From contig CAZKAT010000003.1 in assembly GCA_964551135.1 (NCBI GenBank), positions 1,514 to 65,513 on the forward strand: a stretch of 64,000 bases of DNA, written 5' to 3'. Every line of letters starts with the position of its first letter. Positions within the stretch are counted from its first letter, which is position 1. Below, one piece after another: positions 7,450 to 64,000 of the stretch. The notes beneath the pieces were generated by a model. It searched no databases. It was not told the DNA's origin and was given only the letters and a program-made list of their open reading frames with translations. The translations under genes and the position numbers were made by a program. Source of the DNA: an uncultured Gammaproteobacteria bacterium (GTDB lineage: Bacteria; Cyanobacteriota; Vampirovibrionia; LMEP-6097).

Positions 7450-7485
7450 AATAAGATATTATATAATATTTCTTATCTAAATAAA

Positions 7486-44843: not shown

Positions 44844-44975
44844 GAATTACCTGTAAATAACAATCTATGCTGCATTGCCACTATTCATCTTTCTACATAA
44901 TATTCCCAGCATTTGTCTAATGTCTAGCTATGACCCAATTACTTAACCTATTAAATCAAACAACATAATTCATAT

Positions 44976-47888
44976 GTGATAAAATCCACATTCGAAATGT
45001 TGATTAAACCACAATTAATTTTTCAAGCACCAGATAAGGATTTACCAGGCGTAAATCCTAAATCTGGTAATACCAATATTCCAAGTAATTCTTCTTTGCA
45101 ATTAAGACGTAATCTAGCAGCAACGTTATTAACTTATGAAGATACCAGACGTGCCAAATTTTTTGGAGCCATTAATGGAACTCCTCTGGAGTCTTATTTA
45201 CCTAAAGTAAAGTCTCCAATAGAAAAATTCCTGAAAACTAATCCCAGTGATAAATTAATTCAGGCTTGTGCTACAGATTTGCGTAATGGTAGTAGGGAAG
45301 AAGCTATATTAAAAGAAACATTGTCTATTTACGAATCTTTATCCAAAGCCAAGATAGATGATCGCTTTATACCTGTGTTTCAGTCTTTAGTCCGTGCAAA
45401 TGAAGACAATAAACAATATTCTAGACCTCAATTAGTAGAAGTAGTAATAGTTCCTCTATCAAGAATACAAAATTTTAGTGATAAATTACTAACCAAAGCT
45501 ACTAATGATTTAAGTTATTTAGTTGGTAAAAATGGACAAGATGAATCTAAGTTGGCTGAATATATAAAAGTAGCCCAAAATATAGCTGGATACAAACCTA
45601 CTGCTGACATTCGGAATCTTTACAACAATATCCTTAATGCTGTCTGTGCTACTAATGCAGAAGAGTTGAGATTAACAGCAGATTTAAATCGATTCTTCAA
45701 ACGACTTTCAAATTTATCGATATCCTATGATGTTCAAACTGAATTAGAGAAACAAATTCAATATACTGGTACTCAATTTGGATCAGTACCAAATAGCATA
45801 GATAAATATTTATTATCAGTTATAACTTCTTTTATAAACTTTAATGATCGCCTAACTATGTTTTCATCTGATCGTAGAACTCAAGTCGTAGCACATTACA
45901 ATGAATTAGTTCAAATTACAAAAGATTCTGGCATGCATTTGGATACTCTTAATGATTTATTTACAAGAGGAATAAAAGACGATTTTATAACTGAAGAACT
46001 GGATATTGCAAATTCACTTTATCGATCTTCTTTACATTCCACTAAAAGTGGTCTAGCTGATTTAATTGCATATAGAGGAGAGTCTGCTTTAGAGTTAAAA
46101 CGAAGCCTTCGTGACTTGTATCTTAAAGCAAATGACAAAGATAATGCAGTAGCTAAATCGCTGATCTCTAATTTCAACTCGCTTGCTTTATACTGTCCCA
46201 CTAATTGGGTGTCTGATCCTGGTTCATCTACTTTATATGAAGTACCCAACTTAAAACCTTTATTACCGATAGTTAAATGTTTCGACGCCTTAATCGATTC
46301 TAATAATTTCCGTAACAATACTGTTCATATTTTAACTGAAAGATTCAAAGATTCACTGGATGAAAGTCACTATCCATCAGATCTTGCTTATAACAAATTC
46401 GTTAGTGCTATCAAAGCAAAAGGTTATGATGCAGCTCAATTGAAGCGTCAATTAATATTGATTACTGCACATGATATTTTAATGCACAATATCTCTAACA
46501 CGGGAAAGGTACCAGATTGGAAATATTTTAGTGAAATATTCCATAATGGTGATCTTCCTTTTCGTCATGGTACTCCAGAATATGATCAATGCCTGAGAGA
46601 AAGCCAAATTATTATGAGAGCTAGTTTCAATGCTCACTATGGTTTTGGAGCTTTAGCAAACGATGCCAAAGGTTGGAAAGATTCCATCCTGGCAAGATTT
46701 GGAAGAGATGTTGCATTTCAAGAAGTACAGGCACCTCGTTGTAAAGATGGTAATGCTTTTCCTGGAATGGGTTATGTGATAACTGGTCTCAATGATGATT
46801 TTTTACGTATTCCTGATCCAGCAAGAGAGATGAATGGTGATGAGGCATATCAAGACTTTTTAGCAAATTATCCTTTCTTAGCTGCTGTTGCTGATGATAT
46901 AAGTTCTACTCAGTTTACATTTCTTAGGGGAATGGTGGTAATAACTAATACAAAAGATAAATATTGTTTGCCAGATCGTAATCATCAAATGATACCTTAC
47001 TCTCTCGTTATTTATAATGATCATTTTCATAATAATGGTTATGATATTGCTTTCTTAGTTCCTTCAAAAATACTTTTAGATAAAATGAAACCGACCTTAT
47101 TCTCTATCTATGATACAGATGCGCCTGCTACAATACCCCAAAATATTAATGATGTACCACTTGATATTGAGAGTCTTAGAAAAGAAGCTCATGACATGAA
47201 TGCAAGCATTCTTAGTTTAGGTTCATCATCTAATATTGCAGGCTTAAGTAATGCTTGGGAGCCTAATAGAAGACCATATTGGGCATGGGAAGCTGAAAAA
47301 AATCAAGATTGGCGAGACCTTGATGGACATAAACATAAATGGTTTGCGATGGCACGTCATGAACGGTTTTGGACCCCAGAGAATGAAGAAGAAATGAAAC
47401 CTTTTCAAAGAGTACATAAAGAAGTTTATGGAGTTGCAAAATCATTATTTGATAATTTAAATTCATTTAAATTATTTCTCTCAGCTTACAAGCATGGTTA
47501 TTTAGGTAATTTTGCTAGCAAAAAAAGTTCAGCTACAAGGGATGAATCAATAAGAACGTTTGCTAGTTCAGACAGTTTTCAAACCAGTTCTGACAACGAT
47601 ATGATGTTTGATCAAGCATATCTACTAAGGCAAGCAGCTTTAAAAAGAAAAGCCACAAATTTCCCTAAATTAGTTGTTTATGATACTTATAAATGGTCTT
47701 CCGAACCTATTGAAGGTTTTGAGCTTGATTTAGCTAATATGCAATTAACTTGGAATGGACAGACTCATCAATTAAATTTGGATAAACCAACAGCTACAGA
47801 TAGATCCTTATGGAGAAGAGTATTTAACCAATTTACAGGTTTGAATTATGATTTTAGATTTTATGAAAAGGGTTTAAATCAACATTAA
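44976..47888 (+). CDS. Large hypothetical protein (970 aa)
   Basis: Long uninterrupted ORF without recognisable motifs; no signal peptide apparent. Confidence 0.45.
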   Translation: MIKSTFEMLIKPQLIFQAPDKDLPGVNPKSGNTNIPSNSSLQLRRNLAATLLTYEDTRRAKFFGAINGTPLESYLPKVKSPIEKFLKTNPSDKLIQACATDLRNGSREEAILKETLSIYESLSKAKIDDRFIPVFQSLVRANEDNKQYSRPQLVEVVIVPLSRIQNFSDKLLTKATNDLSYLVGKNGQDESKLAEYIKVAQNIAGYKPTADIRNLYNNILNAVCATNAEELRLTADLNRFFKRLSNLSISYDVQTELEKQIQYTGTQFGSVPNSIDKYLLSVITSFINFNDRLTMFSSDRRTQVVAHYNELVQITKDSGMHLDTLNDLFTRGIKDDFITEELDIANSLYRSSLHSTKSGLADLIAYRGESALELKRSLRDLYLKANDKDNAVAKSLISNFNSLALYCPTNWVSDPGSSTLYEVPNLKPLLPIVKCFDALIDSNNFRNNTVHILTERFKDSLDESHYPSDLAYNKFVSAIKAKGYDAAQLKRQLILITAHDILMHNISNTGKVPDWKYFSEIFHNGDLPFRHGTPEYDQCLRESQIIMRASFNAHYGFGALANDAKGWKDSILARFGRDVAFQEVQAPRCKDGNAFPGMGYVITGLNDDFLRIPDPAREMNGDEAYQDFLANYPFLAAVADDISSTQFTFLRGMVVITNTKDKYCLPDRNHQMIPYSLVIYNDHFHNNGYDIAFLVPSKILLDKMKPTLFSIYDTDAPATIPQNINDVPLDIESLRKEAHDMNASILSLGSSSNIAGLSNAWEPNRRPYWAWEAEKNQDWRDLDGHKHKWFAMARHERFWTPENEEEMKPFQRVHKEVYGVAKSLFDNLNSFKLFLSAYKHGYLGNFASKKSSATRDESIRTFASSDSFQTSSDNDMMFDQAYLLRQAALKRKATNFPKLVVYDTYKWSSEPIEGFELDLANMQLTWNGQTHQLNLDKPTATDRSLWRRVFNQFTGLNYDFRFYEKGLNQH

Positions 47889-47907
47889 AATATGCTATTA
47901 TGTTGCC

Positions 47908-48213
47908 ATGATTAAGAATCAAATAATTTATACTGGCCTCAATAAACCTTTCTATGAAAGAACTCTACCTGTTATTGCACCTGAATCTAATTCTATAAGC
48001 ACATTGAGCAGTAGAGACTTACGTAATATTTTTATACCAGTCAATATGCCTGCCTCTCCTCTTCCAGATGCTCCTACAACTCCAACTACTCCAACTCCTG
48101 ATAAAGATGTACCAACAAGAAGCGTACCTTTACCAGCAAACCCTCAACAAGATCCCGATGGTGCTCCAAGTTCGGTACCTTGTCCTCCTAGTGAATGTCC
48201 TCATCCAAGATGA
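47908..48213 (+). CDS. Small Pro/Thr-rich hypothetical protein
   Basis: 101 aa; C-terminal PTTPTTPTPD...CPPSECPHP low-complexity; 20 nt downstream of the 970-aa ORF. Confidence 0.3.
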   Translation: MIKNQIIYTGLNKPFYERTLPVIAPESNSISTLSSRDLRNIFIPVNMPASPLPDAPTTPTTPTPDKDVPTRSVPLPANPQQDPDGAPSSVPCPPSECPHPR

Positions 48214-48271
48214 AACTCTTTGATTAAGACCATTTCAAAGCTACGTTTAGCATTTTAAATCTCTTAGCAAA

Positions 48272-49432
48272 TTAGTTAAAAATATACCAATCAATTATTT
48301 TCCACACATCTTGATTACCAAGCTCTGATGCCATCTCTAATCTAGATTGTGCCGCTGTCTTGCCAACACAGTAAATGCCTGCTTGACTAAGATTTCCTAT
48401 CATTTCGACAAGATGTTCTTGAGCTAATTTGTCTCCTGGAAATAGCTTTGGCATATAAGCATGAACCATATTTTGTAAAATAGCATTGAAAGTAAATAGA
48501 GTTGGCCAAGTGATCATTTCTGCTCTAGTTCTATCTCTGAGCTTTCCTAAGTCATCAGGATTAATTCCTTTCTTAAGTTCTCCGGCAATTACATCTCTTA
48601 AAATATATGCTGAACCAACTATCCCTCCTAAAGCTTTTCCTGAACTAGCATTCAGCTTTAAACCTAACGCAAAACTCAATCCAAAAATCAATAAATCAAT
48701 TGCTGATCTTTTCAAATTGAGTTCTTTTGTAGAAATTTTCTCAATACCCTCATTAGCTTTTTCAAGATCTTTTTTTCTTTCACAAAGATTTTTTACTAAT
48801 ATAGTTAAAGGAATATTTCTCGGGTCGTTTCTATATTCATCTGGATACTTATTTAATTCTGCTTTTACAACGTCACGAAGTTCACTAAGGATAGGATTTC
48901 TGAGATATTTAACTTCTCCAATAATAGTATAGTAACTAAGCATGCTGGCAAATCTAGATTGCATTTGCACAGAATCTGTAAATGATGCAGCAAGAAAATT
49001 AGCAGGATATCTTGCAAGCAGGGCACCTAACTGTATAATCAAACCAGCCCAGGGCCTGCAATAAGCATCAGCATTATCATAACGAAGTGCATCTTCAGAA
49101 CTATGAGGATCTTCTGCATGCTTAACAAAATTATTAGCAATTAAAACTTTCGCTTCATAAAATTCAGCTCCAATAGCAGGCAATGATGAACTAAGGGTGG
49201 GATTAACACAATGCATTACATGATTAACTAATGGAGCTTTTGTTTTTTTATTAGTCTTTTGTGCTAATGCTTTATTAGTTAGCTCTTCAGCATTAGATTG
49301 ATTTTTTTGCTCAGGTTGTTTTTTAATTTCATTTGTTGCATGACCACTAACCGTAAGCAAACCTAGGGGCAAAACTTTTAAAAAATTTCTTCTACTTATT
49401 GGGTGAACCAGCACTGGGCAAAATAATATCAC
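48272..49432 (-). CDS. Hypothetical protein with twin-arginine (Tat) signal
   Basis: 386 aa; N-terminal ISRRNFLKVLPLGLLTVSGHA matches the Tat consensus (S/T-R-R-x-F-L-K plus hydrophobic region and AxA-like site); GTG start. Confidence 0.5.
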   Translation of the reverse strand: MILFCPVLVHPISRRNFLKVLPLGLLTVSGHATNEIKKQPEQKNQSNAEELTNKALAQKTNKKTKAPLVNHVMHCVNPTLSSSLPAIGAEFYEAKVLIANNFVKHAEDPHSSEDALRYDNADAYCRPWAGLIIQLGALLARYPANFLAASFTDSVQMQSRFASMLSYYTIIGEVKYLRNPILSELRDVVKAELNKYPDEYRNDPRNIPLTILVKNLCERKKDLEKANEGIEKISTKELNLKRSAIDLLIFGLSFALGLKLNASSGKALGGIVGSAYILRDVIAGELKKGINPDDLGKLRDRTRAEMITWPTLFTFNAILQNMVHAYMPKLFPGDKLAQEHLVEMIGNLSQAGIYCVGKTAAQSRLEMASELGNQDVWKIIDWYIFN

Positions 49433-49483
49433 AAGAACACGCGCAACCTGTTATTTTAATCATCATGCTATTATTTTTAATCT

Positions 49484-50788
49484 GTGAAAATAGCTGAAGT
49501 TCAAAAATTAGTAAATAGAACAGAAATAGTGGGTCAGAAAAGACCTACAATTCTTGAAGATCTTTTTGCCTATTTAAACACTCTAGTTACTCAATTTCAC
49601 AAAGCAAAGCAAAATATTTTTGATAAAACTGAGATTGATTTTCAAGAGCCTCTAAAAATAGTAGCAAATGATTTACAAATTAATAATCTTCAACCAATAG
49701 TAGAAACAGAAGATTTCAATTTAGTACGGAATTTAAATTTGGTAGATTTTGCTACATTCCTGGATATAGTAATTAGGACTGTTGCCGTAAAAAATTCTGA
49801 TTTGATTAAGCTTACAGATTTAGCTGCTAAGAATATTTTTAGAACTCATATTAATAAACAAATTTCAGATAGATTAGGAAAAATGTTTTTTGAAGATCAT
49901 TTGGAACCATGGACAAATGATTACATTGATTCATTATCAAGTTCTGAAATTAGCCTTGAAACTCAAGATTTACAGAAAACAATGTTTGATCATGAGAGAA
50001 ATCATTTTTATATTTTTGATATTGATGGAACTCTTAAAGAAGAAGAATCAAATTGTGTAAGCCATGTTATACCAAACATAGATGATCAAGTTAGAAAGGA
50101 TTTGATTACTCTTAGCCAAAAACCTAACACCACCGTCTTAATATTAACATCAAGACCTACGGATGCAATCCAGGAGTCTAATCTACCATATAATATAATC
50201 CCTATGATTACTGGTGCTGGTCGAGAACTTATTAATGGTAATAGACATGAAGTCTTAGTTGGTGATGCATTAATGTCAGAGACAGAAAAGTTTGTAAATC
50301 ATTTACATACTCTGTTAAAGAATCTAAATATATCAAGAGATAAGTATCTTATAAGACAATATGCTGGCTCTCTTTATATTCAGTTCATAGAAAATAATTT
50401 CACTAAAGCAAAAGTTACAGCTATGAAAGCATTGGAAGTATTAATGGCAAACTCTCTTTCAGGCTGGTCAATTGAAAATAGTGATAGTAAATATATCTAC
50501 TTTAAGAACTCTCAATTTCAATATGACAAAGGAATGGCATTGAAAGAAATTCTTACTAATTATAGAGATCAAATAAATGATAAAACGAATATCTATGTTC
50601 TTGGTGATACTTCAAGTGATTATACCGCTATGAAAGCTCTTAAAGAAGCTGATCTGCCAAATGGAGTTAGAAAAGTTAATATTGCAGTTGGTAAAGAATT
50701 AACTGATACAAAGAAATATCCACATGTAGATAAGAGATTAAGTTCGTATCATGCTGTAGCAGATCTATTAAACTGGCTTGCAGTATAA
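49484..50788 (+). CDS. HAD-IIB family phosphatase-like protein (trehalose-phosphatase/Cof-like C-terminal domain) with unknown N-terminal domain
   Basis: 434 aa; HAD motif I FDIDGTL, motif II LILTSR, and motif IV YVLGDTSSD preceded by conserved KG. Confidence 0.5.
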   Translation: MKIAEVQKLVNRTEIVGQKRPTILEDLFAYLNTLVTQFHKAKQNIFDKTEIDFQEPLKIVANDLQINNLQPIVETEDFNLVRNLNLVDFATFLDIVIRTVAVKNSDLIKLTDLAAKNIFRTHINKQISDRLGKMFFEDHLEPWTNDYIDSLSSSEISLETQDLQKTMFDHERNHFYIFDIDGTLKEEESNCVSHVIPNIDDQVRKDLITLSQKPNTTVLILTSRPTDAIQESNLPYNIIPMITGAGRELINGNRHEVLVGDALMSETEKFVNHLHTLLKNLNISRDKYLIRQYAGSLYIQFIENNFTKAKVTAMKALEVLMANSLSGWSIENSDSKYIYFKNSQFQYDKGMALKEILTNYRDQINDKTNIYVLGDTSSDYTAMKALKEADLPNGVRKVNIAVGKELTDTKKYPHVDKRLSSYHAVADLLNWLAV

Positions 50789-50848
50789 TTATTAAGTGGA
50801 CAATTTCCTTTAATTTCAACTCAAATCATTTGAGGTATAATATACTTA

Positions 50849-51913
50849 ATGCCAAAACTAGAATTGAAACCTAGGACATATATAATTCTAGCTATCATCA
50901 TAGCTTTAATAATTGTCGTGCATTTGTATTTAGCAGTATGGGTGAAACATTATGTCAATAAAAAGATGGCAGATTTAAACGGATATAGTGGTTCAATAGA
51001 AAAAATTGAAATACATCTATGGCGAGGAGCTTATAAAATTGACGGTCTGAATATTTATAAAGAACTGGGTGGACTGAAAAAGCCTTTTTTCTCCACAGAA
51101 ACTATGGATATCTCTGTTGATTGGCGTGCACTGTTGAAGGGTGCCATAGTTGCAGAGATTACGTTTAATAAGCCTAAAATTAATTTCGCTAAAACCCAGA
51201 CGGGAGAAAACGCTGGATGGGGTGATTTTATTGACTCACTTGCTCCTTTTGAAATCAACCGTCTAAATGTAAAAAAAGGGAAATTATCCTATATCGATTA
51301 TTCAGCTGAACCAGATGTAAATCTATTTATTGACAATGTTAACGCACAGGTCACTAATCTTAATAACATTGATCATAAGAGTAATGCCCTTCCTTCAACT
51401 CTTAGGGTAACTGGTAAATCTATTGGCAATGGTAATTTAACAGTAAATGGAAGTATGAATATTTTGACTGATATACCAAGTTTTGATCTTGATTTAAAAC
51501 TTACCAAAGCCAAATTAACTGCATTCAATGATTTTATACATGATGCAGCTGGCATAACTTTTGAAGAAGGGAATATAGGAATCTTCTGTGAACTAGCTTC
51601 TACTAAAGGAGAAGTGAAAGGCTATGTTAAGCCTATTCTTACCCATGTTCGCATAATAGATATTAAAAAGGATAAAAATCCATTTAACCTAATCTGGGAA
51701 TCACTTGTATCAGTATTTATGGAAGCCTTCAAAAATCAGCATAAGGACCAATTCGCTATGCGTATACCAATAGAGGGTAAACTAGAAAATCCAAAAGAAG
51801 ATTCATGGAGAGGCTTCTTGAGCATTTTCAGTAATGCTTTTAAACATGCCTTCAAAAGAAATGTAGACGGAACTATAAGCTACAAGGATATACTTGTAGA
51901 AGCCAGAACCTGA
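50849..51913 (+). CDS. DUF748/AsmA-like membrane-anchored protein
   Basis: 354 aa; single N-terminal TM helix (YIILAIIIALIIVVHLYLAVW) followed by a beta-rich region resembling DUF748/AsmA-family proteins. Confidence 0.4.
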   Translation: MPKLELKPRTYIILAIIIALIIVVHLYLAVWVKHYVNKKMADLNGYSGSIEKIEIHLWRGAYKIDGLNIYKELGGLKKPFFSTETMDISVDWRALLKGAIVAEITFNKPKINFAKTQTGENAGWGDFIDSLAPFEINRLNVKKGKLSYIDYSAEPDVNLFIDNVNAQVTNLNNIDHKSNALPSTLRVTGKSIGNGNLTVNGSMNILTDIPSFDLDLKLTKAKLTAFNDFIHDAAGITFEEGNIGIFCELASTKGEVKGYVKPILTHVRIIDIKKDKNPFNLIWESLVSVFMEAFKNQHKDQFAMRIPIEGKLENPKEDSWRGFLSIFSNAFKHAFKRNVDGTISYKDILVEART

Positions 51914-51939
51914 ATACCTGATAAAATTTATAATGCTCG

Positions 51940-53257
51940 ATGTTTGAACTATGGTTAAAGCGTATATTTTTCTCTAAGATAGACATCTCTATTATTGCTT
52001 ATTTCAGAATTGTTTTTGGACTCTGCATGTTAATCAATAGTATCCAGCTCTTTACTGAAGATTACATTGAATATTACTGGTTGAGACCACGTTTTCATTT
52101 TCATTACCTAGGTCTAGAATGGATACATGCTCTACCAGGTAAGGGCATGTATATTCTATGCTTTATTATTAGTCTGAGTTCTTTGTTTATAATGCTTGGA
52201 TTCTTCTATCGATTAAGTATTATAGTTTTTTTCTTCAGTTGGACTTATACATGGTTAATCGGTCAGAGTACTTATAACAATCATTATTACCTTATTTCCC
52301 TTCTTAGTTTTCTAATGATTTTCATTGCAGCTAATGGAAAGTATGCATTAGATGACATGATATTCCCAAATATCCAAACAGACGAACTAGCGTCCTGGAC
52401 TTTATTTATACTGCGTTTCCAGATTGCGATTCCTTATATCTATGGAGGTATCGCTAAACTTAATGAAGATTGGTTTCATGGTGAACCAGTAAGAACATGG
52501 TTAACAAACACAGGAGGATTTGTTGATCAAGAATGGTTTGTATATTTTGTTTCATATGGAGGACTGATCTTTGACTTGACTATTATTCCTTTACTTATTT
52601 GGCAAAGAACAAGGTTGCTAGCATTTATCGCAGTTATTGGCTTTCATCTTAGTAATCACTTCGCGTTTTCAGATATCAGTATTGGAATATTTCCATGGTT
52701 GATGATTGCAGCGACTGCCTTGTTTTTTGAGCCTAGTCAATTCTCCAAATTATTTATGAGGATTAAGCATGTTAAGTAAAATAGAAAAACTAATTTCCTT
52801 ACTCTTAATTTTGTTCATTTTGATACAGATCATTGTTCCTTTTCGATATTTATATTACCCAGGACCTTCTGCCTGGAATGAAGAAGCACATAAATTTATT
52901 TGGCATATGAAACTCGCACACAAGAAGGCTTACGCTCAATTTATCGTATTCAGCCCAAGTCTGAACAAATCATATAAAGTTGATACAAGAAAATTTCTTA
53001 CTAGCTGGCAATATGAAGTGATGGTATCCAATCCCAGATTGATACTACAGTTTGCTCACTATTTAAGAGACTTATATAAAGAACGGGGCATCAATGACAT
53101 AGTAATTAAAGTTGAAGCCAAAACTTCACTCAATAATAGACCGCTACAATATCTCGTAGACCCTAATGTAGATTTAGCCAAGAAAGAAAACACTTTAAAG
53201 CATTTTGATTGGATTATGCCGTTAAATGTTAAGGTAGTACCTAAACATTCATTATAA
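51940..53257 (+). CDS. HTTM-domain (vitamin K-dependent gamma-carboxylase-like) membrane protein, apparently split by a +1 frameshift into ORFs 51940..52779 and 52769..53257
   Basis: First ORF carries HTTM hallmarks (AYFRIVFG, PRFHFHYLGLEW, LGFFYRLS, NNHYYL); second ORF (overlapping by 11 nt in another frame) begins ...PFRYLYYPGPSAWNEEAHKFIWHMKL, which reads like the continuation of the same domain. Confidence 0.5.
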
Positions 53258-53289
53258 TTTCTAATAATGACAAATAACTCTTTCTCAAT

Positions 53290-53478
53290 ATGTCCCTCAG
53301 GTATCATTCAAATACAAGTGCTAGATTAAACTCTTTTATTCAAACAAGAAATAAAACACTAAAACTAATCGAAAACTTAAATGAAGAAGATGCTTACATT
53401 CAGTCCATGCCAGATGTAAGTCACATTAAGAGTGGAATAGCTCTAATTCTTATAGTTTTATTTTTCTGTTCAATTTAA
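53290..53478 (+). pseudogene. Remnant of an egtB-like N-terminus (truncated paralogous fragment)
   Basis: SFIQTRNKTLKLIENLNEEDAYIQSMPDVS aligns with LFIQVRNKTLDLVRDLNEEDTCLQSMTDAS at the N-terminus of the egtB gene at 53867, then diverges and terminates. Confidence 0.5.
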
Positions 53479-53641
53479 ATTCTACCGAGTCACCTTCATC
53501 TTGTTTAACTTCTGGCTGCACTACTCTGACGGTTTCTTTAATAACATCAGGTTGTTTTACTTTGTTTTTATCTATGATTAAGTAAATACCCACCATAACC
53601 AATACTGTTAATAGGGCGATAATAATTCCATTGTTGTTCAT
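53450..53641 (-). CDS. Candidate small membrane protein (63 aa)
   Basis: N-terminal TM helix IIIALLTVLVMVGIYLII, charged tail; AAAGGAA RBS about 7 nt upstream. Confidence 0.3.
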   Translation of the reverse strand: MNNNGIIIALLTVLVMVGIYLIIDKNKVKQPDVIKETVRVVQPEVKQDEGDSVEFKLNRKIKL

Positions 53642-53866
53642 AAGAAATTCCTTTTAGTTCAATACATTACTACTCAAAACTTTTTTGTAATTTCATACAA
53701 AACAAATCTCAAATATATGTTCTATAGACTATTATACACCTTATTATGCCATTTATCACGCATTTCAGATCATATAATAACAGTAATTCTAGATATAGGC
53801 TTCATAATTTAATAATTTGATGTATAATCATTTGTATTCAAACTAAATGGGGTATAAGTTTTATAT

Positions 53867-55201
53867 ATGCATTTAATCAATCCACAAACTCCTAAAATAA
53901 ATTCAACTAGTACAAATACTATATTAAATCTATTTATTCAAGTAAGGAATAAAACTTTAGATTTAGTTAGAGATTTAAATGAAGAAGATACTTGCTTACA
54001 ATCAATGACAGATGCAAGTCCCACTAAATGGCACCTAGCACATAGCTCGTGGTTCTTTGAAACTTTCTTACTTAAAAAATTTAAAACTAATTACAAAGAG
54101 TTTAATCCTGATTTTAATTTTCTATTTAACTCTTACTACAACTCTATAGGTAGAAACCGCTTCCCGCGTTCAAAACGAGGCTTAATCTCAAAACCAACTC
54201 TCCAAGAAGTTATAAATTATAGAAAACATATTGATAATAGCATCATAGAATTAATGGAGAAAGGTCTTCTAGAATCCAAAGCAAACACTGTGCATGAGAT
54301 TATTAGCATATTAACCTTAGGAATTCATCATGAACAACAACATCAAGAACTAATCATTACTGATATTAAGCATGTTCTATCGAAGAATCCGCTGAAGCCT
54401 ATTTTCTCAGACTATACACGTAAAATAATTTTAGGTAGCAAATCTACAATTAGCAAAAAGTCTGAATATATATACCAGCCAGGCGGCATAGTCGAAATTG
54501 GTTATCGAGACGGGGACTCTACTACTGATTTTTGTTTTGATAATGAAATACCAAGCCATCCAGTCTATCTTGAACCATGTTTGATTAGCTCTCAATTAGT
54601 TACTAATAGTGAGTTTCAAGAATTTATGGAAGATGATGCTTATAATCGTCCTGAATTATGGCTAGCAGATGGTTTTGATTTTATTAAAGCTAATAATATT
54701 CATTGTCCACTATATTGGTTTAAAGAAGATAGTAAATGGCAAATCTTTACACTTGGTGGCGTATTCAAACTGAATCCTAAGGAACCAGTTGTACATGTCA
54801 GTTTCTATGAAGCAGAAGCCTTTGCTAGATGGCGTAAAGCAAGGTTAGTGCGTGAAGCAGAATGGGAATCTTTTGCAGAAGAACCATTTAGTAAGAGAAA
54901 TATACTAACTAGTAATTTCCAAGAAAATAATATTTTCCATCCTCTCGCTACTAACGAGTTACAAGTATATGGCAACCTATGGCAATGGACCATGAGTGCA
55001 TATAGTCCATATCCAGGTTATAAAGAACTACCAGGGGCGCTAGGAGAATATAACGGTAAATTTATGATCAATCAAATGGTACTCAAAGGTGGTTCCTGTG
55101 CGACTCCTAGATCACATATTAGATCAAGCTATCGCAATTTTTTCTATCCTCAGCAAAGATGGCAATTTATGGGGATTAGACTTGCCCAAGATGTTTCATA
55201 A
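53867..55201 (+). CDS. egtB: Ergothioneine biosynthesis sulfoxide synthase EgtB-like (DinB_2 plus FGE-sulfatase domains)
   Basis: 444 aa; N-terminal DinB-like metal site (HLAHSSWFFETF, GIHHEQQHQEL) and C-terminal FGE-like domain (GNLWQWTMSAY...KGGSCATP...RWQFMGIRLA). Confidence 0.75.
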   Translation: MHLINPQTPKINSTSTNTILNLFIQVRNKTLDLVRDLNEEDTCLQSMTDASPTKWHLAHSSWFFETFLLKKFKTNYKEFNPDFNFLFNSYYNSIGRNRFPRSKRGLISKPTLQEVINYRKHIDNSIIELMEKGLLESKANTVHEIISILTLGIHHEQQHQELIITDIKHVLSKNPLKPIFSDYTRKIILGSKSTISKKSEYIYQPGGIVEIGYRDGDSTTDFCFDNEIPSHPVYLEPCLISSQLVTNSEFQEFMEDDAYNRPELWLADGFDFIKANNIHCPLYWFKEDSKWQIFTLGGVFKLNPKEPVVHVSFYEAEAFARWRKARLVREAEWESFAEEPFSKRNILTSNFQENNIFHPLATNELQVYGNLWQWTMSAYSPYPGYKELPGALGEYNGKFMINQMVLKGGSCATPRSHIRSSYRNFFYPQQRWQFMGIRLAQDVS

Positions 55202-55212
55202 AGGAGAAAGAT

Positions 55213-56184
55213 ATGAGAAATACAATGACAATGATGAAGACTTACTTAGAACCTAACTTAGCTATTTGCAATGAAATTTATAACAGTTTAAGCCAAGTTA
55301 ATAAATCTCTTTCAAGTAAATTTTTCTATGATGAATATGGTTCAAAACTTTTTGAAGATATATGTGAACTTGATGAGTACTATGTGACCAGAGCTGAGAT
55401 GGAAATTATGGAAAAACAACTATCAGTGTTTGCAAACCTAGCAAAGAAAAAACTATTAGTGATTGAATTAGGTAGTGGTAACACTACTAAAATACGACAC
55501 TTATTGGACAATTTTCCCAATATTCAAACCTATCTCCCCATTGATATTTCAGGAGATTACCTCAAAATCCAAACAGAGAAATTAGCTAATAACTATATAA
55601 ATCTTAATATTCAAATGCTAGCAGCTGACTACACGCATCCTTTTGTTTTACCTAGATTAGAAAATAATTTCGAAGAGATTTTAATTTATTATCCAGGTTC
55701 TTCTATTGGTAATTTTGAACCAATGCAAGCTAGGGTAATCTTACAAAGAATCATTACTTTAATTAAAGAGAGCTATACCTCTTTACCAGTGAAGATGTTA
55801 ATTGGAGTTGACTTGATTAAGGACTCGCAGATTCTTAATCAAGCCTATAATGATTCAAAAGGCATTACTGCTAAATTTAATTTAAATCTTCTTAATAACT
55901 TAAATAATATAGCTGCAACTGATTTCGATTTAAATAAATGGGCACACTTTGCTTATTATAATAATCTACAGAAACGCATTGAAATGCATTTAATTAGCCT
56001 TCATCAACAAACAATCAAAATTGATAATAGAGAGATCTCTATACTGCCTGGTGAAAACATTCGCACTGAATATTCTTACAAATATACAATTGAAGATTTC
56101 TCACAATTATTCGAACCAGTATTTAAACTCGAAAAATGCTTAACCGATGCGAATAATTATTTTGGATTGTTCTTATTCTCCTAA
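55213..56184 (+). CDS. egtD: L-histidine N-alpha-methyltransferase EgtD-like
   Basis: 323 aa; EYYVTRAEMEIM and LVIELGSGNTTKIRHLL motifs typical of EgtD-type SAM methyltransferases; 11 nt downstream of egtB. Confidence 0.75.
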   Translation: MRNTMTMMKTYLEPNLAICNEIYNSLSQVNKSLSSKFFYDEYGSKLFEDICELDEYYVTRAEMEIMEKQLSVFANLAKKKLLVIELGSGNTTKIRHLLDNFPNIQTYLPIDISGDYLKIQTEKLANNYINLNIQMLAADYTHPFVLPRLENNFEEILIYYPGSSIGNFEPMQARVILQRIITLIKESYTSLPVKMLIGVDLIKDSQILNQAYNDSKGITAKFNLNLLNNLNNIAATDFDLNKWAHFAYYNNLQKRIEMHLISLHQQTIKIDNREISILPGENIRTEYSYKYTIEDFSQLFEPVFKLEKCLTDANNYFGLFLFS

Positions 56185-56290
56185 AAACATATTGGGTGAT
56201 AGCTCTAGGACTTTAACTAAAAATTCTTAGATCCAAGGAAATTATGATCTTTAGCTTCAACTATATGCTTATAAGCATTGTGCAATAAAG

Positions 56291-57067
56291 TCATTGAAGT
56301 TTTAGCCGAACTAGAAACTGCCTAGCTAATATACCTCCTTCAAACTTGAATCTATTTTTTTGTTCTTCTTGTCTTTTCTTTTCTAAATGATCAAAATGCT
56401 CCTCATCAGCTTTTCTTCTTTCTCTCATCTTGCTGGGTTTTGAACCTCTACTAATTATTCCTTGAATCTCATTTTTCATTTTTGCTTTTCCATTTTCATC
56501 ATCTGGATTAAGATTTAAAGCACGCTTAGCTAAATCAGCAAGCACTGTTACATTAGAATCATTCTCTAAAGTATCTGGATTAAGTGTATAAGGAATTTCA
56601 CCTTTGATAGCTTCTGGAGGATAATCTGGGGTTCTATAACCTAAAGCGGCTTTTAAAGATTCTATTTGTGCTTCATCCAGTACTCTACTTCTAATTAATA
56701 CTCCTATTTCATTCTGAGCTTGGTTTAAATCTTGAATTACTATGTTAGTTAAAATACTGATGATGATAGTCTCTCTACCTTCTTTCTTGGCTCTTAATTT
56801 TTCATGCTCTTGTTCAGCTGGGATGATTTCATTAATTTGCTTTAAAAGCCAATCTCTGTCAGCTTGATTAATTTCATGCATTGCAAATGCCTTATTAACA
56901 AGTTTAGTATTAGCTTCATCAATAACAGGCTTAGCTAATTCTTCAGGACTAACTTTTACTTTAGTCGTCACAGGATTTGGTTTAGCAACTTCTTTAGTGC
57001 AACCTAAAGCTAAAACTGGCATTAATGCCATAGAAGTAATAGTTCTCAAATTATTGCCTAGAAACAC
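56291..57067 (-). CDS. Hypothetical lipoprotein
   Basis: 258 aa; signal with lipobox LALGC (likely start at internal M, MALMPVLALGC); charged, helical C-terminal half. Confidence 0.45.
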   Translation of the reverse strand: MFLGNNLRTITSMALMPVLALGCTKEVAKPNPVTTKVKVSPEELAKPVIDEANTKLVNKAFAMHEINQADRDWLLKQINEIIPAEQEHEKLRAKKEGRETIIISILTNIVIQDLNQAQNEIGVLIRSRVLDEAQIESLKAALGYRTPDYPPEAIKGEIPYTLNPDTLENDSNVTVLADLAKRALNLNPDDENGKAKMKNEIQGIISRGSKPSKMRERRKADEEHFDHLEKKRQEEQKNRFKFEGGILARQFLVRLKLQ

Positions 57068-57091
57068 AATTCACAATAATACTACATATGC

Positions 57092-58213
57092 TTAGTATGG
57101 CGCAACTACATATTCTGCATAAAGTACTAGCTTTCCAGCAGTAAGCGCTTCACCAGCCACTACCATTGTGATATTGCGGCTTGCGGTAGTCTTCTCGGAG
57201 ATATTAGTTACTAAGCCATTCTGAATAGTACTATGTGCACCCAACGCCCATGGAGTAGTACCGTCAGAGATAGCAATAGGAGCCAAAATACCATTAGCAT
57301 CATCAGTTGGAATACTGAAAGATATAGTGGAAGCACCAGATGCAGAAGTGAGAGCCGTGAGAACCTCATACCAAGCACGAGTGACACGCGCTTTATTTGG
57401 CAGAGTAGCATTACGTAGAGTAATACTACCTACAGTACCACCATCGGTAGCAAAACTATATTCACCACGTAAAGTTCCAGCTATAAATCCAGCACTTGGC
57501 AAAGTGATACTTACAGCACCATTACCACTATTCAGTAACATTCTGTTAGTACCAGCTACAGAGAGTGTTGTATTGCCATTACTAATACTTGCAGCTTGTA
57601 TCTTACCAGCACCTGTAGAAATCACATGACTGTTCCATGACAATGCACCATTATATGAGCTAAGTACAATACCATTCATGGTAATTTTTTTAGGCACTAA
57701 GGTACCAGTATTGTCTACAACTTTTTTACTATTCCAAAGTAAATTACCATTAGCATCTCCTGATAAAGGAGTATCTTGGAAAACAACACTACCAGTTGTA
57801 ACAGTTGTCACATTAAGCTCGTCATCTGGTGGATCAGGATCAGGAGAACTTAAATCAGGTGTATTAAAAATCACTAAAGGAAAATCTTGAGGCTCTTCTT
57901 CTTTTACATCTCCACCAGTTACTCTCAGAATAAGAGTTTTGGTAGAAGTAACTGTAGGTGCTGTAAATTTAAATTTAGTAGGAGCAAGAGTTAATTCCAG
58001 GTCTTCTCCAAATTGTTCAGCATTGCCATCTATTAAGATTGCTCTGACAGGATTAGCAGCAGAAGTAAACTTCAGACCAGTTGCTATAACAGTGTTGCCT
58101 TCAAAAACAAAACTTGAAGAAAGTTTATTGACCTTAGCATTAACTAGTCCCATGCTAGTGATAAGTAGTAAAAACAAAAATAAACGCAGCATATTTCCAA
58201 TATACCATGACAT
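57092..58213 (-). CDS. Secreted Thr/Ser/Gly/Asn-rich hypothetical protein (beta-rich surface protein candidate)
   Basis: 373 aa; N-terminal signal-peptide-like LRLFLFLLLITSMGLVNA; low-complexity T/S/G/N-rich body. Confidence 0.45.
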   Translation of the reverse strand: MSWYIGNMLRLFLFLLLITSMGLVNAKVNKLSSSFVFEGNTVIATGLKFTSAANPVRAILIDGNAEQFGEDLELTLAPTKFKFTAPTVTSTKTLILRVTGGDVKEEEPQDFPLVIFNTPDLSSPDPDPPDDELNVTTVTTGSVVFQDTPLSGDANGNLLWNSKKVVDNTGTLVPKKITMNGIVLSSYNGALSWNSHVISTGAGKIQAASISNGNTTLSVAGTNRMLLNSGNGAVSITLPSAGFIAGTLRGEYSFATDGGTVGSITLRNATLPNKARVTRAWYEVLTALTSASGASTISFSIPTDDANGILAPIAISDGTTPWALGAHSTIQNGLVTNISEKTTASRNITMVVAGEALTAGKLVLYAEYVVAPY

Positions 58214-58237
58214 ATATTTTTAGGATATGTCAGCATC

Positions 58238-59350
58238 TTAGTGCCACATTTTTTGCAACGCCTCTCCGGCCTTATTCAGTGCTTCATTAACCGCCTGCGT
58301 TGCAACTTGTCCCACAGCTCCCACTAAATCAGGACGAATTTGTGGTTTATCAGTACGTCCTGTGATTTTAAGAGGAATGGTACCGCCAGGTAGTACTTGA
58401 CCAACTTTAAGGGGAACAATTCTATCAAGTCCATGGACAAATATACTTAAGTCCATATTATTGTCAAACCCAATAGAGCCTTGTCCTGTTGCCGAAAGTA
58501 ATTTATTGGAGAGTGATAAATTAGAAAGGTAAACTTTCTGATCACGAATGGAGAAGTTACTACTTAGCTTATCAAAATTATCACCTTGCTCTACTTCGCT
58601 TGACTCAGAAGATACTTTCAAACTATCAATTATAGGTTTTATTAAATTAATAAATTTAAATTCTCCTTGATATAAATTAAAACTTCCTTGACCAGTAATA
58701 TTGGTTAAAGGATCAATCTTGTCACTAGCGCTAAAACTGAGTTCAAATTTAGGGACTTCTACCTCTGCTCTAATCTGGTCAGTATCAGCATTTAAGCACG
58801 CTAATGTTTTGTTCAATGCTCCACGTGATAAAGCTCCATGCAATTGCACTATAGAAACTTCTGTCTTCATATCAGTATCCACTACACCATTTGCATGCAA
58901 ATTACTATTACCTAATGTCAATAAAGCATTACTAATAATGATATGTGGATTCTTTTGTTTTTCAGGAATATAAGGGACACATATAAAATCCAAACCACCA
59001 CTGCAACCAGAGATCGCTCGATGCCCTAGATAGATCTTCTCAGCAGCAGCATGACCATCTAAACAATAATTAGGTTGATAAGTATTTTTAGCGATTCTAG
59101 TAATCTCAATATTCTCAAGATTGATAGTTGCTTCTCCTTCGCCTACCGCTAAAAGCTTCAGAGTTATTTTCCTCTGCTCTTTGCTGAATGATTTAGCTAA
59201 ATTAAAGTTCGCACCTCGAACTTTAATTGGCATTTTAAAATCTTTTGTCAATTGGTATGAAATGATTTGATCTTTTACATAAAAGAAAAATACCAAAATC
59301 AATATGGCAACAATTAATATTGCAATCAAAGCTGTAGTCTTCTTATTCAT
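58238..59350 (-). CDS. AsmA-family-like membrane-anchored protein
   Basis: 370 aa; N-terminal TM anchor (ALIAILIVAILILVFFFY); C-terminal region (GTIPLKITGRTDKPQIRPDL) resembles the conserved AsmA C-terminus. Confidence 0.45.
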   Translation of the reverse strand: MNKKTTALIAILIVAILILVFFFYVKDQIISYQLTKDFKMPIKVRGANFNLAKSFSKEQRKITLKLLAVGEGEATINLENIEITRIAKNTYQPNYCLDGHAAAEKIYLGHRAISGCSGGLDFICVPYIPEKQKNPHIIISNALLTLGNSNLHANGVVDTDMKTEVSIVQLHGALSRGALNKTLACLNADTDQIRAEVEVPKFELSFSASDKIDPLTNITGQGSFNLYQGEFKFINLIKPIIDSLKVSSESSEVEQGDNFDKLSSNFSIRDQKVYLSNLSLSNKLLSATGQGSIGFDNNMDLSIFVHGLDRIVPLKVGQVLPGGTIPLKITGRTDKPQIRPDLVGAVGQVATQAVNEALNKAGEALQKMWH

Positions 59351-59448
59351 AAATGATTATTGTAGCAAAAATAGCTTGAAAACTAAAGATTCGTACTGAT
59401 ATTATTAATGCTATAATATTAACCAGAAATTTACTCAAGGAGAATCAA

Positions 59449-59898
59449 ATGACAACTACAATCAAGAAATCAAAAACAGTAACTGAGCTTAAGAATTGCT
59501 TGGCTGATACTTACACACTGCTACTTAAAACACATAATTATCATTGGAATGTTACTGGTCCTAACTTTTTTAGTCTGCATACTTTATTTGAAGGGCAATA
59601 CAATGAGTTATTTCTAGCAGTAGATGAGATAGCTGAAAGAATCAGAGCTTTAGGAGAAAAATCCCCTGGATCATTCTCAGAGTTCTCAAACTTAAGTCAC
59701 ATTACTGAAGCTAATAGTAATCTAGATGCTAGCGCTATGATTCAAGATCTTTACAATAGTAATGAACAAGCAATTGAAACTCTTATCAAGCTAAGAGATA
59801 CTGCTGAAGAAGAGAATGATGCTGAAACTGAAGATTTAGCTATAGCTAGAATTAAAGCTCATCAGAAAAGCGCTTGGATGTTAAAGTCAAGTAAGTAA
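59449..59898 (+). CDS. dps: Dps-family DNA-protection / ferritin-like protein
   Basis: 149 aa; ferroxidase-centre region THNYHWNVTGPNFFSLHTLFEGQYNEL...DEIAERI typical of Dps. Confidence 0.8.
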   Translation: MTTTIKKSKTVTELKNCLADTYTLLLKTHNYHWNVTGPNFFSLHTLFEGQYNELFLAVDEIAERIRALGEKSPGSFSEFSNLSHITEANSNLDASAMIQDLYNSNEQAIETLIKLRDTAEEENDAETEDLAIARIKAHQKSAWMLKSSK

Positions 59899-59902
59899 TT
59901 AA

Positions 59903-60547
59903 TTAGGTAAGTCTTCTAAACACAATGATATTCTTATCATTGCTATGTATTATTTCCATGGAGAATAATTCAGCAAGCTTCTCAAAAGTTTGCCTTGAAT
60001 AAAAAGCAATATGCGTTACATCATCTTTATAACGCCATGCTTTGAAATCTTCATAAGAGCAAGCAAAGCTAGTCATAATGGCAAGATAGCCTCTAGACTT
60101 AAGCAAACCTGTAATGAGCTTAAACTCTTTTAACGGATCTTGAAAATGCTCAAAAGTTTCTGTGGAAACTATCAAATCATACTGAGATTGTTTAATTAGA
60201 TCTCTTGGAGCATAATAAGGATCGTAGATATCTACATCATATTTGCAGTCTTTAAGTAGTTTAGCTAGAACAGGATTAGGTCCAGATCCATAATCCAATA
60301 GCTTATGGACTACATAAGGCTTAATTGCAATTTCAATAAAATCACTTAGTAACTTTAAATATCTAGAATCTTCTAAGGAGTTTTCATGCTTATCGTAACG
60401 CGCCTTCTCTTCATCTACACTAAGCAAGGAGTGTGAATCAATACTAATAAATCCACATGCATCACAATGATAAAAAATCCGAGAATTTTTTAGAGTAGTT
60501 AATTTCTCAATTGATGCTTTACAGATTTTACAATTGGGATTAATCAT
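59903..60547 (-). CDS. Class I SAM-dependent methyltransferase with N-terminal zinc-ribbon
   Basis: 214 aa; CKICK...CDACG Cys4 ribbon and methyltransferase motif I LDYGSGPN. Confidence 0.6.
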   Translation of the reverse strand: MINPNCKICKASIEKLTTLKNSRIFYHCDACGFISIDSHSLLSVDEEKARYDKHENSLEDSRYLKLLSDFIEIAIKPYVVHKLLDYGSGPNPVLAKLLKDCKYDVDIYDPYYAPRDLIKQSQYDLIVSTETFEHFQDPLKEFKLITGLLKSRGYLAIMTSFACSYEDFKAWRYKDDVTHIAFYSRQTFEKLAELFSMEIIHSNDKNIIVFRRLT

Positions 60548-60651
60548 GATCGAATATTATCATACACATGACTGCCATCGAATTCTTAAATATTAGAAGA
60601 TTCGCATATAGCACTTGTTTAAATTTGTTCAACAGTTCAGAATATTAGACT

Positions 60652-61629
60652 ATGGACATAGGAACGAGTATCGCGAATAATTTTCTGCACCCACCTGTTT
60701 TATTCTTTGTCTTGGGTTTACTTGCCGTAGTAGTCAAGTCGGACTTAGAAATACCACCAGCAATTGGTAAATTTTTAGCTCTATATTTACTGTTTGATAT
60801 TGGTCTTAAAGGTGGCGAAGAGCTCTTCCATAGTGGTTTTACTCTATCTATAATCCAAGTATTAATTACTTGTGTTGCATTATCACTGTTTATACCTTTA
60901 ATTTGCTACAAAATTTTAAGATTAAAACTAGATCCATATAATGCTGGTGCTATCGCAGCAACGTATGGTTCTATTAGCGCCGTTACCTTTATCACAGCTT
61001 CTTCCTTCCTTGATGCTCACCACATACCTTTTAGTGGTTTCATGGTAGCTTGTATGGCATTAATGGAGTCTCCAGCAATTATTTCTGGACTATTGATTAT
61101 TAAATCTGCAATTAAAGATGAAAACGGTAAAAAACAAAACTCTATTATGCATGTACTGCATGAAGCATTTACCAATGGTTCAGTTTTTCTTTTAATGGGT
61201 AGCTTGGTAATTGGTTATATCTCAGGTAGTGCAGGTGAAGCTGAACTTAAACCCTTTATTAGTGATATTTTCAAAGGAATGCTTTCTTTATATATGTTAG
61301 ACATGGGGCTTATTGCTGGTAGTAAACTTTCTAGTCTTAAACAATCTGGCTTATTCTTAAGTGGTTTTGCTTTATTCTATCCTATATGTGCATCGATCCT
61401 AGGTATCACACTTGCAAAATTACTAGGATTAGAGCCAGGTAATGCTCTATTGCTCACAATACTGACAGCTAGTGCTTCCTATATCGCAGTACCAGCAGCC
61501 ATGAGACTTGCCGTACCACAAGCTAACTTAAGCTTACTATTACCAATGAGCTTAGGTATCACCTTCAGCTTCAATGTTATTTTTGGGATACCACTTTACT
61601 ATTCAGTCATTGAAAGATTCTGGCAATAA
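60652..61629 (+). CDS. SbtA-like permease (DUF897, sodium-dependent bicarbonate transporter family)
   Basis: 325 aa polytopic membrane protein; N-terminus LHPPVLFFVLGLLAVVVKSDLEIP...LFDIGLKGGEEL matches the SbtA/DUF897 N-terminal signature. Confidence 0.5.
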   Translation: MDIGTSIANNFLHPPVLFFVLGLLAVVVKSDLEIPPAIGKFLALYLLFDIGLKGGEELFHSGFTLSIIQVLITCVALSLFIPLICYKILRLKLDPYNAGAIAATYGSISAVTFITASSFLDAHHIPFSGFMVACMALMESPAIISGLLIIKSAIKDENGKKQNSIMHVLHEAFTNGSVFLLMGSLVIGYISGSAGEAELKPFISDIFKGMLSLYMLDMGLIAGSKLSSLKQSGLFLSGFALFYPICASILGITLAKLLGLEPGNALLLTILTASASYIAVPAAMRLAVPQANLSLLLPMSLGITFSFNVIFGIPLYYSVIERFWQ

Positions 61630-61640
61630 GCATCTTAAGC

Positions 61641-63800: not shown

Positions 63801-64000
63801 TTATCAACTCCTGTTCATTTTCAGAACAATTTCTTCCAAAAAGAAGAAAACTTTTTCTTCTTACTTCTGTATCTTACATGCTTGGTATTAACGCAAGAAT
63901 TTGGTTTTAAGATAGTAATATTTGGATAATGAATTAATCTGGCTCTTAATTGATCCAAGTTACTGCAATTAATAGTACGATTGAAACGCAGATCAACTGA

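Follow-up and report, generated by a model that had tools for sequence, protein, structure and literature searches.

An apparently complete pair of ergothioneine biosynthesis genes, egtB and egtD, lies in the 64-kb stretch of metagenomic DNA analyzed here (the window), and upstream of it stands a short open reading frame (ORF), egtB', that resembles the 5' end of egtB. The locus therefore raises the question of how a piece of a second egtB came to lie in front of the first, and whether the event that left it there touched the function of the resident genes. The reading that we prefer, to which we give a probability of about 60%, is that the locus contains one working egtBD operon and the relic of a second, diverged egtB, and that the relic was made by illegitimate recombination between diverged arrangements of this region. 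Coordinates of the features discussed are given in Table 1.

The relic ORF is identical to EgtB at 24 of 45 positions across residues 14-58 (tblastn E = 7e-12 when the upstream region alone is searched and 2.9e-8 for the entire window), and its homology to egtB begins within a few codons of the gene start. At the DNA level, positions 53313-53429 align with positions 53911-54027 at ~75% identity over 118 nt (blastn E = 6e-15; repeat family D1), and when gaps are allowed the homology extends to position 53443 (egtB codon 61), crossing two indels, an insertion of 2 nt and a deletion of 9 nt. The initial annotation had described the fragment as a copy of the egtB 5' end and had proposed a nucleotide alignment as a check; the alignment agrees with that description, but the similarity spans ~45-48 codons (EgtB 14-61) and not the roughly 30 that had been estimated. 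What is preserved is the first DinB helix only. All of the iron ligands and the catalytic domain are gone, the indels destroy the KWHxxH iron-ligand motif, and the EgtB model TIGR03440 gives a weak match (profile positions 3-36, E = 9e-5). A search for the relic among 1.84 billion representatives returned only the self-match, and no further egtB or egtD fragments were found in the window. Judged by its sequence, the ORF is a pseudogene fragment of the egtB 5' end.

We compared the region with the corresponding loci of a sister species (L003; EgtB 71% identical) and a third species (L005; EgtB 68%), and with that of a second strain of the window species (L006). Neither L003, at the corresponding site, nor L005 has the relic. 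By both blastn and tblastn, homology to L003 ends at the end of the DUF748 gene (51903/51913) and restarts at position 53446, which makes the relic the right edge of a lineage-specific block that otherwise consists of a split HTTM/VKGC-like gene. L003 has only ~20-27 nt at this site, its gene order being DUF748, 63-aa ORF (minus strand), egtB, egtD, whereas the order in the window is DUF748, HTTM ORF, VKGC-lumenal ORF, egtB', 63-aa ORF. In L005 both the block and the 63-aa ORF are missing, and egtBD lies elsewhere, directly after a homologue of the window's 370-aa gene. The DUF748 protein is 76% identical to that of L003 and 71% identical to that of L005. Since the VKGC ORF stops 33 nt before the egtB' ATG and the homology to egtB starts from near the beginning of the gene, the relic appears once to have stood directly downstream of HTTM/VKGC.

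The divergence of the relic gives an indication of its origin. Over 103 aligned nt it is 70.9% identical to the resident egtB, 75.7% identical to that of L003 and 68.9% identical to that of L005, while the three functional egtB genes are 70-76% identical to one another over the aligned stretch. Informative sites were shared between the fragment and the resident gene in 2 cases, between the fragment and L003 in 4 and between the resident gene and L003 in 4. The best protein match of the relic is the sister-species EgtB (63.6% identity, versus 53.3% for the resident protein), and EgtBs from beyond the clade score lower. This pattern of identities therefore places the relic within the egtB lineage of the clade, and indicates that it was not copied recently from the resident gene.

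Decay was scored with a hidden Markov model (HMM) built from 117 distant EgtBs. On this model the relic retains 30 bits, versus 45-49 bits for the three functional genes, and most of the loss is at its indel-damaged 3' end. We simulated neutral substitution starting from either the resident or the L003 sequence, and recorded how often the product still scored at least 30 bits and contained no stop codon. The simulation gave P = 0.27 at 10% change, P = 0.05-0.07 at 15% change and P ≤ 0.01 at 20% change or more. The observed divergence of the relic is 25-29%, and because neutral decay of at least 20% fits poorly, most of this divergence would have accrued under purifying selection, i.e. in a parent that was a working egtB elsewhere, with truncation coming comparatively late.

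The arrangement is well supported by the available assemblies. The window falls within a 288-kb ENA metaSPAdes contig (ERZ3430527 NODE_13, 29x coverage), the Logan assembly of SRR7369907 is base-identical to the window over 16 kb, and the second strain (SRR17828886, from another study, 99.7% identical) has the same arrangement with 0 differences in 43867-54819, so that the relic is carried by three independent assemblies. A metagenome assembly chimera, in which two co-occurring related species had been joined at the egtB region, would be conceivable given that the sister species was assembled from the same run, SRR7369907. However, the joint does not lie in sequence common to both species, and the arrangement was repeated by different pipelines (ENA metaSPAdes at 29x, and Logan) as well as in the unrelated sample SRR17828886. 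We reject a chimera because independent assemblies agree on the identical arrangement, and consider it scarcely credible.

Comparison with the second strain revealed that exchange of DNA has also occurred inside the operon. Over 20 kb, the window and L006 differ at 57 positions, all of which fall in six tight clusters of single-nucleotide polymorphisms (SNPs). The SNP tract in egtB matches neither L003 nor L005 consistently, and there are no SNPs in the 11 kb to its left. Clustering of this kind is expected if short tracts have come in from other, diverged relatives outside the sample; the changes in the egtB tract are mostly synonymous. Both the window species and its sister were recovered from one sequencing run (Logan SRR7369907, loci L002 and L004) and from neighbouring ENA assemblies (ERZ3430527 and ERZ3430525), and this co-occurrence would provide the opportunity for recombination between species.

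Transformable bacteria are documented to undergo homology-facilitated illegitimate recombination, in which 3-10 bp are shared at the joint, and the joining process has been defined experimentally in Acinetobacter, Streptococcus and Pseudomonas (PMC6382021). The scars that it leaves are similar to what is proposed for the window in that foreign DNA and a truncated gene fragment lie beside a conserved anchor gene, and in that one joint lacks homology bar a few shared bases. At the joint in the window, the 5-nt sequence TAGCT is common to both parental sequences, DUF748 is present as a candidate anchor, and 1.5 kb stands against the ~20-27 nt of the sister, in a comparison of three genomes with a hypothetical donor. 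The experimental scars differ in this respect, as the one described here is deduced from a three-genome comparison in which the donor is unsampled.

In the model that we prefer, which is the one with the fewest coincidences, DNA from a relative with the order DUF748-HTTM/VKGC-egtB... would have recombined into a sister-like locus (DUF748, 63-aa ORF, egtB, egtD), with DUF748 as the homologous anchor at one end and illegitimate joining, perhaps at the common TAGCT, at the other. The relic would then derive from a second and diverged egtB, of which about the first 61 codons remain; this gene would once have lain 33 nt downstream of the HTTM/VKGC-like gene and have been cut at about codon 61 by the illegitimate joint against the spacer downstream of DUF748. 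The outcome would be the insertion of ~1.5 kb next to an intact resident operon. Several points weigh against this model. The relic is only ~135 nt long and does not place clearly among the three species, neutral change of 15% is only marginally disfavoured by the simulation (P = 0.05-0.07), and a TAGCT microhomology of 5 nt in AT-rich, diverged DNA could be due to chance. Three genomes cannot separate an insertion here from a loss in the sister lineage, and an intact HTTM/VKGC-egtB arrangement was not seen at any of the loci of HTTM homologues or among the representatives, leaving the donor hypothetical. Finally, a pyridoxal phosphate (PLP)-dependent C-S lyase (EgtE/Egt2-like) was not found among the called genes of the window.

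The same scar could be reached from the opposite direction, by replacement of a cassette. Here the ancestral order would have been DUF748-HTTM/VKGC-egtB-egtD, which was overwritten from egtB codon ~61 onwards by sister-like DNA bringing in the 63-aa ORF, promoter, egtB and egtD, with an illegitimate joint on the left and a homologous crossover on the right. The distance from the VKGC stop to the relic ATG (33 nt) is operon-like, the relic behaves as a formerly functional gene, egtB contains imported tracts, and the core of 63-aa ORF, egtB and egtD is kept with L003 while both flanks differ, all of which would suit such a replacement. It would, however, require the left end of the donor to land by chance in the ~20-nt spacer between DUF748 and the 63-aa ORF; neither sister species, nor any other relative sampled, has HTTM/VKGC, and there is no remnant of an old egtD downstream. 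Remnants of egtB or egtD bracketing a replaced cassette were searched for in the window and none were found. We regard replacement as unlikely. Improbable, in our view, is a local tandem duplication, in which the segment from the post-DUF748 spacer through egtB codon ~61 was copied, the left copy decayed and HTTM/VKGC took the place of its 63-aa ORF and promoter. The two egtB 5' ends are indeed arranged as direct repeats, both oriented alike, at a distance of 598 nt, and the joint between the egtB 5' end and the start of the 63-aa-ORF segment is exactly as such a duplication would predict, but the divergence is at the between-species level, the resident gene and the relic do not group together, neutral decay of the observed size was rejected by the simulation and no left copy of the 63-aa ORF or promoter was found. 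A second event would also have to put HTTM/VKGC precisely 33 nt before the relic start codon. The initial annotation had suggested a past duplication or rearrangement; a rearrangement is upheld, but duplication is the less likely of the two, given that the relic is equidistant from the resident and sister egtBs and lies within a 1.5-kb block.

It could also be argued that the 62-codon ORF is not a scar but encodes a functional small protein or regulator, e.g. a DinB-helix peptide, or a partner acting antisense to the 63-aa ORF at its 3' end. Its frame is open for 62 codons, it overlaps the convergent 63-aa ORF by 29 nt and it is unchanged between the two strains; however, the strains are identical across 11 kb here, which makes that identity uninformative. 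The ORF is absent from both sister species, its tail is read from the antisense strand of the 63-aa ORF, and the product would consist of the first DinB helix alone with no metal ligand and with KWHxxH broken by indels. A functional role is thus highly improbable. A wider proposal is that egtBD is a locally mobile two-gene cassette that has occupied at least three contexts in the clade, in one of which it was co-transcribed with the HTTM/VKGC-like enzyme, the relic being a natural scar of one-sided recombination between diverged Melainabacteria lineages. We think this quite unlikely; if it were true, the co-transcription would hint at a functional link between a vitamin-K-carboxylase-like membrane enzyme and ergothioneine.

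The block itself offers little sign of a mobile origin. Its GC content is similar to that of the flanks, there is no tRNA in 45000-64000, no integrase or transposase Pfam families occur in the genes flanking the block, and no terminal repeats of the block were significant beyond a 14-nt imperfect inverted repeat. Insertion of a mobile element or genomic island was rejected for want of a tRNA target, an integrase or transposase, and significant terminal repeats. The inverted repeat (51922-51935 and 53250-53263, 12 of 14 positions complementary) brackets the HTTM/VKGC pair almost exactly, and is probably due to chance in AT-rich DNA. The HTTM and VKGC ORFs overlap by 11 nt in different frames, the ATG of the latter lying inside CATGTTAAGTAA, and the split falls in a variable linker. 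Nearly all of the ~120 homologues listed are single fused proteins of 440-490 aa. Because the split is identical in independent assemblies, the two ORFs would be a genuinely split gene, a frameshifted pseudogene or a recoding site. Outside the window species no HTTM relative exceeded 49% identity. When loci carrying HTTM homologues were searched with tblastn (80 from GTDB genomes and 80 from metagenomes), no egtB or egtD was found within ~6 kb. A conserved HTTM/VKGC-egtB operon elsewhere was therefore rejected (0 of 160 loci), and the former VKGC-egtB adjacency would be idiosyncratic.

The resident genes carry the expected hallmarks of their families. The initial annotation had identified adjacent EgtB-like and EgtD-like genes and had proposed HMM searches as a check on both. 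The ORFs are where it placed them, with 12 nt between the egtB stop and the egtD start, and both proteins score above the curated equivalog cut-offs: EgtB gives 522 bits against NCBIfam TIGR03440 (cut-off 360) and EgtD gives 331 bits against TIGR03438 (cut-off 290.9). EgtB scores below the cut-offs of the SenA model (322 bits, cut-off 420) and of the model for the N-terminal domain of OvoA (122 bits, cut-off 400), which rules out SenA (selenoneine) and OvoA (ovothiol) identities, and EgtD scores 159 on the EasF model, below its cut-off of 205; neither protein thus falls into OvoA or a generic family, the outcome that would have spoken against the annotation. The Pfam domains of EgtB are DinB_2 (PF12867) at residues 23-163 and FGE-sulfatase (PF03781) from residue 200, while EgtD matches Methyltransf_33 (PF10017; E = 2e-89) and the solved EgtD structures 7scf and 4pim (E = 1e-38 to 1e-37). 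An alternative egtD start is the ATG at 55231, and the gene call in strain L006 is 317 aa long. Close relatives of EgtB are few, with only three among 5.8 billion protein clusters (99%, 71% and 68% identity) and all others at or below 53%.

Within the sulfoxide synthases, EgtB is assigned by its similarity and motifs to the type II class, represented by the enzyme of Chloracidobacterium thermophilum (CthEgtB). In a phmmer comparison it scored 420 bits against CthEgtB (6QKI, 6O6L, 8QF6) over residues 32-444, as opposed to 105 bits against the type I Mycobacterium thermoresistibile enzyme (4X8B), 110-116 bits against the SenA and OvsA structures and 69-71 bits against EgtB-IV (8vig, 8vih). Its motifs are KWHLAH at residue 54, FNSYY at 87-91 (with SYY at 89-91), HHEQQH at 154, EYNGKF at 394 and RNFF at 423, and the phmmer alignment shows SPTKWHLAH, FNSYY, R..R..R, HHEQQHQEL, EYNGKFM and YRNFF to be identical in CthEgtB. 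FNSYY aligns with the FNSYY of CthEgtB and would provide the type II Tyr-Tyr pair of the N-terminal lid loop; this adjacent pair of tyrosines is a catalytic hallmark of the C. thermophilum enzyme (PMC10696552). EgtB-II has the composite motif xSHHYYRRHQHxYNFFx and, with 16,304 NCBI sequences, is the largest subfamily (PMC11030361). The predicted 3-His iron site and the rest of the composite-motif residues (S, H, H, RR, H-Q-H, Y-N, F-F) are present in the window protein. Type II enzymes use cysteine in place of gamma-glutamylcysteine and function without EgtC (PMC11993508). Because of this subfamily membership and because egtA and egtC are absent nearby, the sulfur donor of the window EgtB is probably L-cysteine and not gamma-glutamylcysteine.

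These assignments allow the likely pathway to be outlined. EgtD would use S-adenosylmethionine (SAM) to trimethylate histidine to hercynine, and EgtB, in an Fe(II)- and O2-dependent reaction, would join free cysteine to C2 of the imidazole ring to give hercynylcysteine sulfoxide; use of free cysteine would make EgtA and EgtC unnecessary. The final step, PLP-dependent C-S cleavage, would be carried out by an enzyme encoded outside the window. Each of these steps is deduced from family membership. Among the Pfam families of the genes called across the window we found no GCS2, no GATase (class II amidotransferase) and no Aminotran_5, i.e. no candidates for egtA, egtC or egtE, and no senB- or senC-like genes were seen among the called genes. 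The absence of egtA, egtC and egtE from the vicinity had been pointed out in the initial annotation, as had a cysteine-dependent two-gene route; both hold, the latter to the extent that the type II assignment (420 versus 105 bits, Tyr-Tyr pair kept) supports it. Tandem egtBD genes without adjoining egtA, egtC or egtE are a known arrangement outside the actinomycetes, and the egtBD module of the window is an ordinary example of a very common route.

Comparison with characterized systems leads to the same view. CthEgtB is of the same fold family as the window EgtB, with DinB_2 and FGE-like domains, and in Methylobacterium aquaticum, as in the window, egtB and egtD adjoin without egtA, egtC or egtE, and deletion of egtBD abolishes ergothioneine (PMC4621440). 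In contrast to the known EgtB-II systems, the window host is uncultured, of Melainabacteria type and with a GC content of ~31%, and its EgtB, known from sequence, is only ~50% identical to any EgtB beyond its own small clade. The mycobacterial egtABCDE system has the end product, the EgtD step and the overall EgtB fold in common with the window. Its type I EgtB, however, uses gamma-glutamylcysteine and needs EgtA and EgtC, whereas the window has no egtA, egtC or egtE nearby, and the catalytic Tyr of the type I enzyme is located in the C-terminal domain, with no counterpart of the Tyr-Tyr insertion that the window EgtB has. Types I and IV, SenA and OvoA have no residues aligned with the Tyr-Tyr pair of the lid loop (PMC10696552, PMC11030361). 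EgtB-IV, which is OvoA-like and has been described in Cyanobacteria (Liao and Seebeck 2017, as cited in PMC11030361), and SenA/OvsA belong to the same superfamily of non-haem-iron sulfoxide/selenoxide synthases as the window EgtB, but match it with only the 69-71 and 110-116 bits given above, and the SenA model stays below its cut-off.

The region upstream of egtB bears on whether the event disturbed the operon. egtB and egtD would be transcribed as a pair from their own promoter, at about the promoter-like site listed in Table 1. Overlapping this site is a 34-nt element that is 91% identical in L005 (9951-9984), is conserved in L003 (about 7885-7925) and has no further copy in the window; a regulator may use it as its operator. 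By eye the element has some resemblance to a Fur/PerR site, but this reading was dropped, as the window contains no excess of the 16-mer (4 occurrences with 3 or fewer mismatches, versus 2.0 expected) and the 16-mer is missing upstream of the dps gene nearby. No RNA element or riboswitch in 51800-56400 matched Rfam at threshold, and a single match below threshold was chance-like. Since the resident egtBD has kept both the promoter-like site and the 34-nt element, its function would have been untouched by the event.

Table 1. Positions of the features discussed in the text, numbered from the first nucleotide of the window.
Feature	Position	Strand	Length	Description
DUF748 gene	50849-51913	+		PF05359; left synteny anchor common to all three species
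Lineage-specific block	51914-53445		~1.5 kb	Split HTTM/VKGC-like gene and egtB'; from DUF748 stop to 3' end of 63-aa ORF
HTTM ORF	51940-52779	+	279 aa	N-terminal half of vitamin-K-carboxylase-like membrane protein; PF05090, E = 2e-73
VKGC lumenal ORF	52769-53257	+	162 aa	PF22777, E = 5e-41; alignment to fused homologues
egtB' relic	53290-53478	+	62 codons	53308-53443 homologous to egtB codons 14-61
63-aa ORF	53450-53641	-	63 aa	One predicted membrane helix; divergent from egtB; no family match
egtB promoter-like site	53801-53828	+		TTCATA-16-TATAAT; best plus-strand promoter match in 51800-56400
Conserved element	53815-53848	+	34 nt	Overlaps TATAAT -10 box; contains TTTGA-N17-TCAAA
egtB	53867-55201	+	444 aa	Intact; predicted type II (cysteine-using) hercynine sulfoxide synthase
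Recombination tract in egtB	54820-55037	+		15 SNPs versus L006, 12 of them third-position; 3 amino-acid changes
egtD	55213-56184	+	323 aa	Predicted L-histidine N-alpha-methyltransferase, hercynine-forming
SNP clusters versus L006	54820-55037, 58301-58315, 58897-58949, 59862-59868, 60572-60807, 62553-62577

The surroundings of the operon vary between the species. From DUF748 to a Dps-like ferritin gene the neighbourhood is a rearrangement hot spot (L005 8791-12294; L003 10278-12978). After egtD, L003 has SIMPL, Fic and methyltransferase genes, the window has an unrelated 258-aa gene (56291-57067), and in L005 a CDGSH protein follows egtBD. The 63-aa ORF, whose 3' end overlaps the relic ORF convergently by 29 nt, is present in the sister species at equal length (75% identity) and absent in L005. 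The L003 DUF748 gene (6574-7532) matches window residues 1-57 and 72-353 as two overlapping pieces that lie in different frames, which suggests a frameshift near its 5' end; it is called as 268 aa and not 354. ORFs of 1431, 970, 373 and 370 aa without a Pfam family lie at 16902-21197 (minus strand), 44976-47888 (plus strand) and 57092-59350 (minus strand), and the pair of 373 and 370 aa is ~80% conserved in the sister species.

The host of this locus is most likely an uncultured Melainabacteria/Vampirovibrionia bacterium, i.e. a non-photosynthetic relative of the cyanobacteria, a placement made from the named GatB matches. GatB from the window has many relatives at 70-86% identity, and its matches include proteins labelled "Cyanobacteria bacterium" (68%), "Candidatus Caenarcaniphilales bacterium" (64%) and "Candidatus Melainabacteria bacterium" (55%); the flagellar genes and GC content of ~31% also fit a Melainabacteria-type group. 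No mention of ergothioneine genes in the Melainabacteria group was found in the literature searched.

The locus leaves the known picture of ergothioneine biosynthesis unchanged, and extends the host range of type II egtBD, a very common route, to a Melainabacteria-type lineage. The organisms of the window would use a CthEgtB-like enzyme, whereas the enzyme reported from Cyanobacteria is of the OvoA-like type IV. Taken together, the relic and the SNP tracts would be a small but concrete case of a metabolic locus, in an uncultured lineage, being remodelled by recombination between diverged relatives.

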